From Methanobacteriota archaeon (GTDB lineage Archaea > Halobacteriota > Bog-38 > Methanoflorentales > Methanoflorentaceae), in contig OY970393.1 in assembly GCA_963720465.1 (NCBI GenBank), positions 736,001 through 800,000 of the forward strand: DNA of 64,000 bases. The letters run 5' to 3'. Made by a program: the position numbers and the translations under genes. This document shows positions 19,082 to 34,998 of the stretch, in pieces. Positions within the stretch are counted from its first letter, which is position 1, and every line of letters starts with the position of its first letter. The notes beneath the pieces were generated by a model, which ran no database searches, was not told where the DNA came from, and saw only the letters and a list, made by a program, of their open reading frames with translations.

Positions 19082-20133
19082 GTGGAAAGGGATTTGACTT
19101 ATTACCGTCATCGAGCCAGGGAGATGCTCGCTCGCGTGTGTGGTGTTTACCCAGTGTGCGACGGTGACCCGGATCATCTATGCACCGGACAAAAATATGG
19201 AGCGCCTATCGGCTTAGGGGGCGCAGGACAGGCCAAGACATTTGAGGCAAACTATAGAGCCCTGCAACAGTACCGGCTGAAAATGCGGGTGATCAAGGCC
19301 CATCACGAACCAGAAATGTCCGTTTCAATCTTTGGGAAGGAGCTCGCCGCCCCGGTTATGGGGGCGGCCATCTCCGGCGTGAAAAACAACATGAATGATG
19401 CCATGCCCGAAGAAGAATTTTATTGGGGTCTGTTAAAGGGAGCTCAGGCGTTCGGGACTATCGGCATGGTGGGAAACACCCCTACCAGTCCCGAAGACTT
19501 GGGGGTCACCACCGTAGGGAAGAACGAGGGATGGGGAATCCCATTCTTCAAACCCCAGTCCCAGGATCGGTTAATTAAGCTCTTCCAGCTGGCAGAGAAA
19601 CTGGATGTGATTGCCATTGGCGTTGATCTGGAAGGTGCGGGGTCTACTTCTTGGATCACTCCCGAGAAAAGGGTTTACCGGAAAAGTGAGGATAATTTAA
19701 AGGAATTAGTAGAGTGCACCAGTAAACCCGTGATCTTCAAGGGTATTATGAGCACGGAAGACGCGGTTAAGGTGGTGGATTCCGGTGCCAGTGCATGTTA
19801 CGTATCTAATCACGGGGGCAGAGTCCTAGACTGCGGCCAGGGAGTGGCAGAGGTACTCCTGATATAGCAGAGGAGATTTCAGGAAAGATCCCTATACTGG
19901 CGGATGGAACGGTGCGAACGGGATTTGACGTCCTCAAGATCAGGGCGCTTGGCGCGGATGTAGCCCTGATCGGCCGGCCCCTCGCACAAGTGTGTATTGG
20001 TGGGGGATACATGGCCGTGAAGATGTATTTTGATTATGTTAAGGATGATCTTCGCCGAGCCATGCTATTGACAGGATGCGATACGCTCAAAGACGCAAAC
20101 ATGAGTATTTTGGATAGATTGGGGCATCTGTAA
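19082..20133 (+). pseudogene. FMN-dependent alpha-hydroxy-acid oxidase/dehydrogenase with one frameshift (~19858)
   Basis: KGIM, VSNHGGRVLD, then ILADG.VRTG.DV.K..ALGA...GRP in the shifted frame. Confidence 0.85.
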
Positions 20134-22357: not shown

Positions 22358-22567
22358 GATCCTTCCGTTCGGGCTTTATTTTGTTCCTCATTTGGATTTG
22401 TAATTACCCCAACTAATCAGCATCTGACGACGTCTGCCTCGCTCAGACCACGGTCTTTAGTACTCGAACTGAGCGCATGTCTTGCGCATTAGGGGGCGGT
22501 GTCGGCTGGAAGCTCGCAAGCGCGCGTGGAAAGAAACACTTATGTCACCTCGCGCCACCGTACCCCC

Positions 22568-22639
22568 GCAACACCACGAACGCTTCTCCTTACGGGCAGT
22601 GGTGTAGCAAACTGCCGGAGTCATGTCTATGACTCCGGC
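22568..22639 (+). ncRNA. Candidate 72-nt structured RNA, copy 1
   Basis: 66/72 identical to 32447-32518(-); two stems; TATA-like gaaacacttatg ~25 nt upstream. Confidence 0.55.
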
Positions 22640-22763
22640 GCCCGTTATTTAGCCCACATTAGGCCGGGACGCTCAATATCGAGCATATACGTTTGATGGA
22701 AAAAACGTGTAATTATCGGCTTCGACGCGGCTGCAGATGCTTTTTCGCAGCTGTGGCAAAAAC

Positions 22764-22970
22764 TCAGCGTCTTCGACGTAAAAGGCGCCGCAGGCGGAAC
22801 AGAAATTTTTTCTTTGCTTGAGTGGGAACGATCTGAGGAGGGACGATCTCGAGTTTGTTGCCGCAGTTATGACAGAACTTCGCCTCTTGAACATGCGCAA
22901 CGCCACACGCCGGACAGATGTACCTATCTTGATCTAAAGCTATTTCAGCGTCGCGCAAGCTGTCGTCCAA
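22764..22970 (-). CDS. Zinc-ribbon protein
   Basis: CPACG...AKFCHNCG; a further FCSACG...F..CG ribbon in the shifted frame. Confidence 0.65.
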   Translation of the reverse strand: MDDSLRDAEIALDQDRYICPACGVAHVQEAKFCHNCGNKLEIVPPQIVPTQAKKKFLFRLRRLLRRRR

Positions 22971-23389
22971 TGCACCTCACCTCGCACAGAACTTAGCATC
23001 ATCGCTGACTTGCTCATTGCAGGAACGGCAGATTTTGGCAGTCATCCGACATCAGTCCGAATTTTGTCCTGAGAACTGTATGATGGCATTGACAAGATAA
23101 AAAGTTCTCTTCTCGTCTCTTTGCTGCATGATTTTCTTGGTATCATCTACAACGTCTACCGCTAAATTATACGGCGGCTACTGCTTCGAACAAACGGCAA
23201 ACTGACGATGAAACCCCCTCCATAAATAACGACGTACATTTCGGCCTGCGGCGAAGGTAAAGGCTCCGGAGCTTATCATACTCCACCGGTCGCTCCTGAA
23301 GGCGCGAGGACTCCACCGTCGCGTAAGCAGATCTTCAATCAATATGCGTTGCAGCTGGTTTTTCCATAACGAACCTCAAGATGCGAGGT

Positions 23390-32282: not shown

Positions 32283-32409
32283 TCATTTTTTTTCAAGGGC
32301 CTCTATGCGTTCCCCCATCGAGCCCTTACACGCTCTGAACTCTTGACAGCACTTCTCGAGCTCGTCTACGCGCTTCTTTAAGTCATTTATTTCGTTTTTC
32401 GTATTCCAT
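32283..32409 (-). pseudogene. Small coiled-coil ORF with a frameshift in an A-run
   Basis: ggaggtga SD; MEYE/NEINDLKKRVDELEKCCQEFRACKGSMGERIEALEKK. Confidence 0.5.
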
Positions 32410-32446
32410 TTTTTTCACCTCCACGTATAAGTGCTAGAAATTGGGG

Positions 32447-32518
32447 GCCGGAGCCATACACATGACGCCGGCAGTTTGCTCCACCACTGCCCGTAAGGAG
32501 ATGTGTTCGTGGTGTTGC
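32447..32518 (-). ncRNA. Candidate 72-nt structured RNA, copy 2
   Basis: See copy 1; lies 5' of the small coiled-coil ORF. Confidence 0.55.
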
Positions 32519-32633
32519 GGAAGTAAGGACGCACGAAGCGGCATAACATTTCCCTTAGGGTAGAGGTTAACGCACGCCTCGATACGCCGTGCGGCGATGA
32601 CGGATATACAAGACGTCCATAAGGGTGCCCGCG

Positions 32634-33266
32634 TTAGCGGCTGGAGAGAGAGTCCGCGATCCGTTTCTTCATCTCACGAGCGGCGCGTGTGATGTCCGGT
32701 TGCGCGACAATCGCTGATATAACAGCGATTCCGTCAGCTCCTGCCTCCAGAACATCACGGACATTATTCAGCCCGATGCCGCCAATAGCCACGACTGGGA
32801 CCTCGACTGCCCTCTTGATTTGCCTGATTCCGACGATGCCACAAGCGGCTCCTGCATCGGGTTTTGATGCGGTAGGAAAAACAGGACTTGCCGCGACGTA
32901 ATTTGCCCCTTGCTGGACTGCGAGAATCGCATCTGCAGCACAACTCACCGAGGCGCCGATAATGAACTCACGGGGAGCGCGAGCGCGTGCCTCATGAACC
33001 TGCAGGTCGCTCTGACCTAAGTGAACGCCGTCGGCCCCGCAGGAGAGTGCCACGTCAAGCCAGTCGTTGACCACAAAAAGCACATTCGCATCCCGCGTCA
33101 CCTTCCGCATGTGTCGCCCAGTTACAACGAGATCCTGCTTATCACATTTCTTGTCTCTAAGTTGGATTGCGTCAGCTCCGCCTTCAATCGCGAGCCGTGC
33201 TATTTCCTCGTGAGACAGCCCGCCCGCCAGCGTTGGGTCCGTTATCACGTAGAGTTCGTAGCCCAT
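32634..33266 (-). CDS. thiE: Thiamine-phosphate synthase
   Basis: QLRDK, VND, DGVHLGQSD, PVVAIGGI. Confidence 0.95.
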   Translation of the reverse strand: MGYELYVITDPTLAGGLSHEEIARLAIEGGADAIQLRDKKCDKQDLVVTGRHMRKVTRDANVLFVVNDWLDVALSCGADGVHLGQSDLQVHEARARAPREFIIGASVSCAADAILAVQQGANYVAASPVFPTASKPDAGAACGIVGIRQIKRAVEVPVVAIGGIGLNNVRDVLEAGADGIAVISAIVAQPDITRAAREMKKRIADSLSSR

Positions 33267-34194: not shown

Positions 34195-34998
34195 ATGAAG
34201 GTTCATTTGAACAACGTCGAGGAAACGCTATTGATCCCGTTATGGGGTCGAGCACAATCAAACAGCGCGCACAATTCGCTGCTTAACGACGCGAAAGCGA
34301 TTGAGATCATTGACCGAATCGACTATGACTTCTCAAAACTCCTCGGCGTCAGATTCTCAGACGAGATTTCTGGTTCGTTATACGGGCAAAGCAGTTCGAC
34401 GATAAGATACAAGCTTACATTACCGAGCACCCACGCGGAACAGTCGTGAACATCGGCGCTGGACTTGACACCACGTTTTACCGCATCGACAATGGGTCGA
34501 TTCGGTGGTATGACATTGACCTTCCAAACGTCATCGATATCAGAAGACGGTTGCTTCCTGAAACCGACAGAACAACATCGATAGCGCGATCCATTTTCGA
34601 TTCGAGCTGGTATTCTGAAATCAAACACACGCAAGACGGCCTGTTTCTGATGGCGGCGGGCGTCTTATTTTATTTTGATGCGGCGCAGGTACGACAGTTT
34701 TTTTGTCGTTGGCAGACGACCTTCCCGGCGCTGAAATTGTGTTTGATACGTTGCCTAAACTCGCTGTTACTTTCACGAACTGGAATGTGAGGAAAGCGGG
34801 AATGAAAGGGGCTACCGTCAAATGGGCACTAAGAGATGCGAATGAAATCACGAAGGGGACAGCCGCATTACCGTGATCGATCAGGTTCCGTTCTTCAGAA
34901 ATATCCCAAGAGATCCTTCATGGGGCATAGGCACTCGCAGATTCATGGATTTCAGCGACAAGTTCAAGATCTTGAATATTTTCCATTTACGAGTATAA
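34195..34998 (+). pseudogene. LCM/TcmP-like SAM O-methyltransferase with three frameshifts
   Basis: ETLLIPLWGRA, NIGAGLDT.FYR.DNG, DLP.VI. Confidence 0.85.

Follow-up and report, generated by a model that had tools for sequence, protein, structure and literature searches.

Among the small RNAs known to act on ribosome binding sites, two groups come closest to the RNAs reported here. The cia-dependent small RNAs (csRNAs) of streptococci are described as several similar two-hairpin sRNAs per genome, with an anti-Shine-Dalgarno (anti-SD) sequence in an unpaired region (PMC3091779); blocking of translation initiation by this sequence is described as a proposal and, in some members, as demonstrated (PMC3091779; PMC4507080). 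In the archaeon Methanosarcina mazei, sRNA162 is described as a 191-nt RNA that masks a ribosome binding site (RBS) and pairs through its linker (PMC3510493), and a review presents sRNA154 and sRNA41 of the same organism as RBS-masking archaeal sRNAs (PMC5867862). What is known of archaeal regulatory RNAs comes from a handful of cultured models, and the family presented here comes from an uncultured methanogen. Its lineage, Bog-38, is equated in a preprint with Ca. Methanoflorentaceae or Rice Cluster II and presented there as a key methanogen of northern peatlands (10.1101/2025.08.21.671631). Literature searches returned no paper pairing Methanoflorens with sRNA, and, among the matches listed, all papers on Bog-38 archaea deal, by their titles, with ecology or metabolism.

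The window, i.e., the whole stretch of DNA that was analyzed, is 64,000 nucleotides long and covers C1:736001-800000 of a genome assembled into a single contig (C1; 2,313,764 bp, 51.7% G+C). The genome has mcrA, and its host is therefore a methanogen. The original prediction described, in this window, a two-copy non-coding element with a switch-like fold, regarded as an undescribed archaeal sRNA or a cis-regulatory leader. Our analyses indicate that the copies are very probably members of a real structured RNA gene family. The best reading available to us, for which belief and doubt weigh about equally, is that they are lineage-specific sibling small RNA genes, probably trans-acting through an anti-SD motif. 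The features on which the argument depends are given below, in window positions unless C1 is stated.

22566-22644, + strand: copy 1 of the small RNA (match to covariance model R1, 100.2 bits, E 7e-23)
22528-22547, + strand: promoter-like element of copy 1, with the BRE-like GGAAAGAAAC, rich in purines and A, and then the TATA-like ACTTATGT, in which TTATG is at 22540-22544
22568-22577/22599-22608, + strand: stem P1 of copy 1, GCAACACCAC/GTGGTGTAGC (inverted repeat I2)
22578-22598, + strand: P1 loop of copy 1
22586-22591, + strand: CUCCUU in the P1 loop of copy 1, anti-SD-like, the exact complement of AAGGAG
22609-22613, + strand: linker between P1 and P2 of copy 1
22614-22624/22629-22639, + strand: stem P2 of copy 1, GCCGGAGTCAT/ATGACTCCGGC (inverted repeat I3)
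22645-22650, + strand: T-rich TTATTT directly 3′ of P2 of copy 1, possibly an archaeal oligo-T terminator
32442-32520, - strand: copy 2 of the small RNA (R1 match, 92.4 bits)
32539-32556, - strand: promoter-like element of copy 2, GGGAAATG followed by TTATGCCG, with TTATG at 32546-32542, in register -26 as in copy 1
32500-32495, - strand: CUCCUU in the P1 loop of copy 2
32283-32409, - strand: conserved small protein gene downstream of copy 2 (from translations), whose frame breaks after codon 5-8
C1:1916185, C1:1301098, C1:1644144, C1:902010 and C1:716041: further copies, outside the window
C1:1311331-1311348 and C1:1544315-1544332: examples of the palindrome TTAGCCGCATGCGG

Both copies lie where they had been placed, and the claim that their cores are more alike than their flanks was borne out: blastn gives 91% identity across 78 nt, and the alignment decays in both flanks. 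The two stems were recovered mechanically as inverted repeats, P2 of copy 2 differing from that of copy 1 by one U-A to U-G change and one mismatch, and the GGCAGT/ACTGCC sequences from which an alternative fold had been drawn are present. A TATA-like box had been noted upstream; in both copies, TTATG starts exactly 26 nt 5′ of a conserved CCGCAAC. Copy 1 has a minimum free energy of -36.3 kcal/mol (z = -4.85; 0/200 shuffles as good), and copy 2 alone gives z = -1.39, with 16 of 200 shuffles as good. The sequence 3′ of P2 is only TTATTT in copy 1 and only ATTTCT in copy 2.

No Rfam family accounts for the element. A scan of the 64-kb window with the 4227 models of Rfam 15 gave no match at gathering score, c-di-GMP-I/GEMM, mini-ykkC and HgcC included. 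The resemblance to GEMM-type riboswitches that had been suggested finds no echo in Rfam even at E values up to 10 over 22400-22800 and 32300-32700, where the only match of any kind lies outside the element. This match, 19 nt at 22411-22429 (+) to the 3′ part of the C/D-box model sR36, scores 10.3 bits (E 4.3), where the gathering score is 55, and is most likely due to chance.

The number of copies had been underestimated. Copy 1 matched seven places in the genome by blastn, apart from the P2 palindrome matching its own opposite strand. The covariance model R1, built from an alignment (A3) of these seven places, returned eight matches at 33.9-100.2 bits, the seven known ones scoring 65.9-100.2 bits and the eighth, a weak copy at C1:1305464-1305542, scoring 33.9 bits. 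The copy at C1:716041 has a damaged P1 and a promoter box off register, and it may be in decay. Similarity among paralogues is limited to about -35 to +80 of the RNA start, that is, to promoter and RNA, with a single pair excepted: the copies at C1:1301098 and C1:1644144 (loci L010 and L012) have 290 nt in common at 91% identity, about 205 nt upstream included. Both are without a T-run 3′ of P2, and the pair looks like a recent segmental duplication.

Outside the source genome, R1 matched 14 of 23 further genomes from its family (12/17 in the same genus and, weakly, 2/6 in the sister genus) and none of 17 genomes from 12 other families. An alignment of 35 of the 38 R1 matches (A4; the three left out had no stored locus) was used to build a broader covariance model, R2, which returned the same 14 of 23 genomes. 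With an even sample of the phylum, R2 matched 12 of 18 genomes of its own family and 0 of 132 from 25 other families; many of the genomes in these surveys are incomplete. Two related genomes, G008 (91% complete, 10 contigs) and G018 (87%, 1 contig), gave no R2 match and, since such near-complete relatives have no copy, the function of the RNA is dispensable.

A pattern scan of 185,579 species genomes yielded 40 stretches, 12 of which score 33.8-97.9 bits with R1; all of these are uncultured archaeal MAGs, and the titles of their records name bogs, fens or peat experiments. The other 28 stretches are bacterial, score below 24 bits or have no score with R1, and were discarded as chance pattern matches. 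The same pattern occurred in 113 stretches of metagenome contigs and, among the 80 loci listed, at least 48 match R2 at 49-97.6 bits; these 48 matches amount to 34 distinct sequences, four of them already known. In all these searches, the RNA family turned up only in a single lineage of uncultured methanogens from peat.

The promoter-like box keeps a fixed register in most of the family. TTAT[AG] is found at -30 to -22 of the model start in 25 of the 35 members, at exactly -26 in 19, compared with 1.4% of random 13-nt windows, and most of the ten members without it have a variant form, for example ATATATCG. In 22 of the 25, the box comes after an A-rich, BRE-like stretch, and a conserved CCTTAC lies a few bases 5′ of the RNA. 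The distance from TATA box to transcription start has a usual value in archaea; because of this usual distance, the start is predicted at about the G or A of CCGCAAC. In copy 1, it would fall near 22568-22570, which agrees with the earlier guess. Farther upstream, at -60 to -40 and 5′ of the BRE, a GCAAGC-like motif (TTGCAAGC, CGCAAGCAG; e.g., window 22509-22516) occurs in 15 of the 35 members versus 11% of random windows, a frequency that partly reflects orthology; it could be the site of a shared regulator.

At the 3′ end, TTTT lies within 25 nt of the model end in 16 of the 35 members, compared with 9% of random windows. A block TTTTAGCCGCATGCGG..ATTGCCG is conserved 3′ of the copies in many relatives, where the palindrome often comes after the T-run behind small RNA genes. 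The core palindrome, TTAGCCGCATGCGG, is found about 40 times in the source genome at up to two mismatches, against a rough expectation of about 15; only three of these sites are at RNA copies (two copies) and most are elsewhere. We considered and rejected a third hairpin or extension of the RNA 3′ of the T-run, for which no consistent structure was found and whose palindrome is genome-wide. The palindrome is read here as a generic intergenic or terminator-like element, outside the RNA gene, and may be widespread in the lineage as an element of terminator or REP type.

The two stems of the original prediction (P1 and P2, together called Fold 1) covary in the further copies. In A4, standard pairs fill 93.2% of the P1 and P2 cells and 10 of the 18 pairs change on both sides, neither value being reached by any of 500 shuffles, and sliding the 3′ partners by 1-3 columns lowers pairing to 35-54%; A4 was fitted to the covariance model, which favors pair counts, and the slid-partner controls share the same bias. 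Compensations in P2 recur among the 34 distinct sequences of the metagenomic set, in which P1 was fixed by the search pattern, and in five of them a G-C has become U-A.

Fold 1 had been proposed to alternate with a second fold, Fold 2, made of six pairs between GGCAGU and ACUGCC, so that the element would act as a two-state switch. The six pairs can indeed form in 93% of A4 cells and both partners are highly conserved, but this pairability follows from the conservation of the sequence and not from covariation. On A4, Fold 2 shows no covariation beyond chance, with one double-changed pair (reached by 152/500 shuffles) and a covariation score reached by 95/500. The 5′ partner is missing from four to five diverged members, and UGCC is already explained as the base of P2. 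Moreover, at least one metagenomic member, L102, has UGCC changed to CGCA with a double compensation on the far strand, which keeps P2 and breaks Fold 2. The term “switch-like” is, therefore, not supported, and a switch of this kind is very improbable.

The genomic surroundings of the copies bear on two further alternatives. Around the eight copies, 56 ORFs were scanned, and their Pfam matches point to unrelated families: thiE/thiM lie upstream of copy 2, copy 1 has GAPDH and a cupredoxin nearby, and the other families include C_GCAxxG_C_C, DUF1638 and histidine kinases. No transposase family is present among these ORFs. A dispersed DNA repeat without RNA function (a MITE, an IS end or a REP-like element) would account for the dispersal of the element in multiple copies, for the 290 nt shared by one pair with upstream flank included, and for the genome-wide palindrome behind many copies in relatives. 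Nevertheless, the unit is bounded neither by terminal inverted repeats nor by flanking direct repeats, its similarity ends at the promoter and at P2, and searches of plasmid and phage collections with the element gave no match; compensatory changes in two helices, together with a fixed promoter register, are unexpected for a repeat maintained at the DNA level. Identity with an IS or MITE end, named in the original prediction as a possible refutation, is hardly credible on this evidence.

A cis-acting 5′ leader (riboswitch, attenuator or SD sequestrator) controlling the gene downstream of each copy is the second of these alternatives. Several copies are indeed followed, at 76-370 nt, by a gene on the same strand; in five orthologous loci, a C_GCAxxG_C_C gene has stayed about 150-175 nt downstream of the RNA; and the C1:1301098 and C1:1644144 copies, which have no T-run, include one with an ORF within 41 nt. 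Several copies per genome and conserved junction bases are, likewise, riboswitch-like traits. However, the next gene after copy 1 is a frame-shifted zinc-ribbon gene that runs toward it on the - strand; with a convergent gene there, copy 1 has nothing to lead into and cannot be a leader. Same-strand downstream ORFs, where present, begin anywhere from 1 to 433 nt away, and the families downstream are unrelated (C_GCAxxG_C_C, DUF1638, unknowns). A T-run often intervenes, followed in many relatives by the genome-wide palindrome, and no riboswitch model matches. We consider leader function improbable.

The zinc-ribbon gene deserves a remark of its own. Its fragments, with repeated C..C...C..C motifs, occupy two - strand frames at window c. 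22700-23100, convergent with copy 1, and the gene looks frame-shifted. A 337-nt stretch at these fragments has 78% identity to the region upstream of the weak copy at C1:1305464.

Copy 2 had been described as leading into an SD sequence and a small coiled-coil ORF. The SD (GGAGGTG, 32422-32416, -) and a conserved gene are there, but an intact ORF is not: the frame opened by the ATG at 32409 stops after eight codons, and the frame that would give the coiled coil lies one base out of step and lacks a start codon. The encoded protein would have about 45 amino acids, of the type M[DN]YE.EI..LKKRI.ELE.CC.EFRAC.G..GERI..LE. Of 23 related genomes, 13 have homologues (E <= 0.01), the seven best being 64-82% identical, and the source genome has a paralogue at C1:1411262-1411381 (-). 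Among the matches listed, no homologue adjoins a copy of the RNA; in other genomes, and likewise at its own paralogue, the gene stands without the RNA, which also counts against a leader. From these sequence comparisons, the small gene probably just neighbors the RNA and is not part of it, and the copy in the window was apparently broken by a 1-nt indel at an A-run. Two short ORFs of the window, at 19607-19864 (+) and 34195-34787 (+), cover only positions 206-263 of 350 of FMN_dh and only positions 89-182 of 187 of LCM, respectively. Two such partial-domain ORFs, two broken genes and 91% completeness in one contig suggest many homopolymer indel errors or pseudogenes in the assembly.

Heterogeneous downstream genes, the convergent gene at copy 1 and the promoter-like boxes of the copies themselves thus argue for independent RNA genes. 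Where the original prediction had left a choice between an undescribed archaeal sRNA and a cis-regulatory leader, the sRNA is upheld (no Rfam match, own promoter-like boxes, covariation of Fold 1, restriction to one lineage), and the leader is unlikely in view of the convergent gene at copy 1 and the variety of genes and distances downstream of the others.

The P1 loop of these RNAs is about 21 nt long and has CUCCUU in the copies of the source genome. CTCC or CCTC is found in the P1 loop of 29 of the 35 A4 members and in 52 of 65 distinct sequences overall, six A4 members being without either, and the motif is predicted to be unpaired (mean probability 0.80 vs 0.44 for all bases). The 16S rRNA of the source genome ends in GGAUCACCUCCU. 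The loops of three diverged members match this tail over 9, 8 and 7 nt (GAUCACCUC, GAUCACCU and ACCUCCU), whereas in 500 shuffles matches this long arose 0, 1 and 6 times, respectively; in most other members the match is only 5 nt, a length that about 20% of loops also attain after shuffling. Paralogues differ in the bases 5′ of CUCC (AACGCUU, AACACAU, AACGUUU, ACGGCUU), and UUACGGGCA 3′ of it is constant.

The gene starts of the source genome carry the counterpart of this motif. GGAG, GAGG, AGGA or GGTG lies just 5′ of 92 of 257 unambiguous ATG starts, compared with 34 of 257 for a control region, and AAGGAG is the top hexamer at -20 to -3 of 582 ATG starts, with 19 occurrences against three in a control region. 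These frequencies indicate that the host organism uses SD-led initiation. The exposed CUCCUU loop suggests, without proof, that the RNAs block ribosome binding sites on mRNAs.

It is reasonable to hypothesize the following course of events. Each RNA gene would be an independent transcription unit with a BRE/TATA-type promoter, giving a transcript of about 80 nt whose first base would be about the G or A of CCGCAAC. This RNA would consist of P1 (GC.ACACCAC/GUGGUG..GC), which closes a loop of about 21 nt, then the conserved linker GCAAAC and the GC-rich hairpin P2, with a T-rich stretch behind. In the P1 loop, the unpaired CUCCUU (or CCUC) would copy the anti-SD core of the 16S tail and pair in trans with the SD regions of mRNAs, which would hinder ribosome binding; the variable bases 5′ of CUCC may give each paralogue its own target preference. 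The analyses above show the family with its copy number and distribution, the promoter-like box, the two covarying helices and the conserved motif in the loop; transcription and its strand, the RNA ends, trans action and SD masking are what we infer from the arrangement of these elements, and for SD masking in trans as the mechanism our belief stays a little below our doubt.

Predicted targets of the individual loops did not stand out from shuffled controls. RNAduplex was applied to 13171 candidate start regions, and on the 1191 of them that bear GGAG the loops were also run with shuffled flanks; there, 1, 8, 4, 8 and 4 of 12 shuffled loops that kept CUCC did at least as well as the five real loops. 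Anchored pairing counts over 1389 GGAG sites gave real maxima that 21%, 11%, 25%, 62% and 0.7% of 300 shuffles reach, the last value belonging to the degenerate copy at C1:716041 and, as one of five tests, not being trusted. The most attractive single candidate is the start region of a CBS-domain gene (C1:1598817, - strand): GUAAGGAGA and GCGUUCG, right next to the AUG, could pair with the copy 1 loop across one bulge (9+7 complementary bases). The site is identical in 6/6 genomes, but these are so closely related (94-96% protein identity) that the identity carries no weight. A site at an ABC-2-type permease gene was set aside as not conserved, AAGGAGA being replaced by AGGGGGA in 4/4 relatives.

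SD masking leaves the conserved GGGCA and GCAAAC unexplained. These other unpaired stretches are conserved at least as well as CUCCUU, to the point of being nearly invariant, and simple SD masking does not need them. Together with the absence of target enrichment in the predictions above, they raise the alternative of a structured RNA that works chiefly with a protein or ribonucleoprotein, for which it would serve as decoy, sponge or cofactor; GGGCA, GCAAAC and CUCCUU would then be protein contacts, possibly for a factor that recognizes the 16S 3′ tail. A possible protein site is also invoked for the conserved nonamer of the csRNAs in the paper describing them (PMC3091779). Against a protein partner, no candidate protein is linked to the loci, whose neighbors differ from copy to copy, and the likeness of the RNA to the 16S 3′ end plus spacer is at shuffle level, 60-95% of 300 shuffles scoring as high in local alignment. 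We regard this alternative as unlikely. The same alignments led us to reject a derivation of the RNA from the 16S 3′ end plus spacer.

Returning to sibling anti-SD sRNA genes, a wider statement may be ventured, tentatively and with more doubt than belief: the dominant methanogens of northern peatlands would carry five to eight sibling sRNAs that imitate the anti-SD tail of 16S rRNA and compete with ribosomes for AAGGAG-type sites. If this is true, translation initiation would be subject to a global brake that can be tuned, and, within the literature searched, no multi-copy family of anti-SD sRNAs would have been described in Archaea before. If confirmed, it would also offer a first handle on post-transcriptional control in peat methanogens of the Bog-38 lineage. 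The family is delimited, covaries, and has a recognizable promoter and an exposed motif, so it is directly testable in existing peat metatranscriptomes, and the covariance models R1 and R2 can be used for its annotation.

Finally, we compare the family with the described systems. With c-di-GMP-I (GEMM) and other Rfam riboswitches it has in common its small size, conserved unpaired junction bases and several copies per genome, but it matches no Rfam model and its copies have no common class of downstream gene. The sRNAs 162, 154 and 41 of M. mazei are, like these RNAs, intergenic methanogen sRNAs with hairpins and a single-stranded region, which in their case masks an RBS; going by their descriptions only, they are single-copy and confined to Methanosarcina, whereas the RNAs of the peat methanogens are about 80 nt long, occur seven to eight per genome, belong to another lineage and carry the motif in a hairpin loop.

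The csRNAs are closer in organization, being described as several sibling genes, each with a similar promoter of its own, typically two stem-loops and an unpaired anti-SD. What we find in the peat methanogen and its relatives resembles this organization: eight paralogous model matches in the source genome, a promoter-like box in fixed register in 25/35 members and, in the P1 loop of 29/35, an anti-SD motif that is predicted to be unpaired. Unlike our family, the csRNAs are bacterial, and there is no sequence relationship between the two. As described, the csRNAs have a known common regulator, CiaR, whereas the present family is known here from its sequence alone, and their anti-SD/anti-AUG motif lies between the hairpins, whereas that of the peat-methanogen RNAs is in the loop of the first hairpin. 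Sibling anti-SD sRNAs are, in this sense, already known from bacteria, and the RNAs reported here would be a new family of them in an uncultured archaeal lineage.
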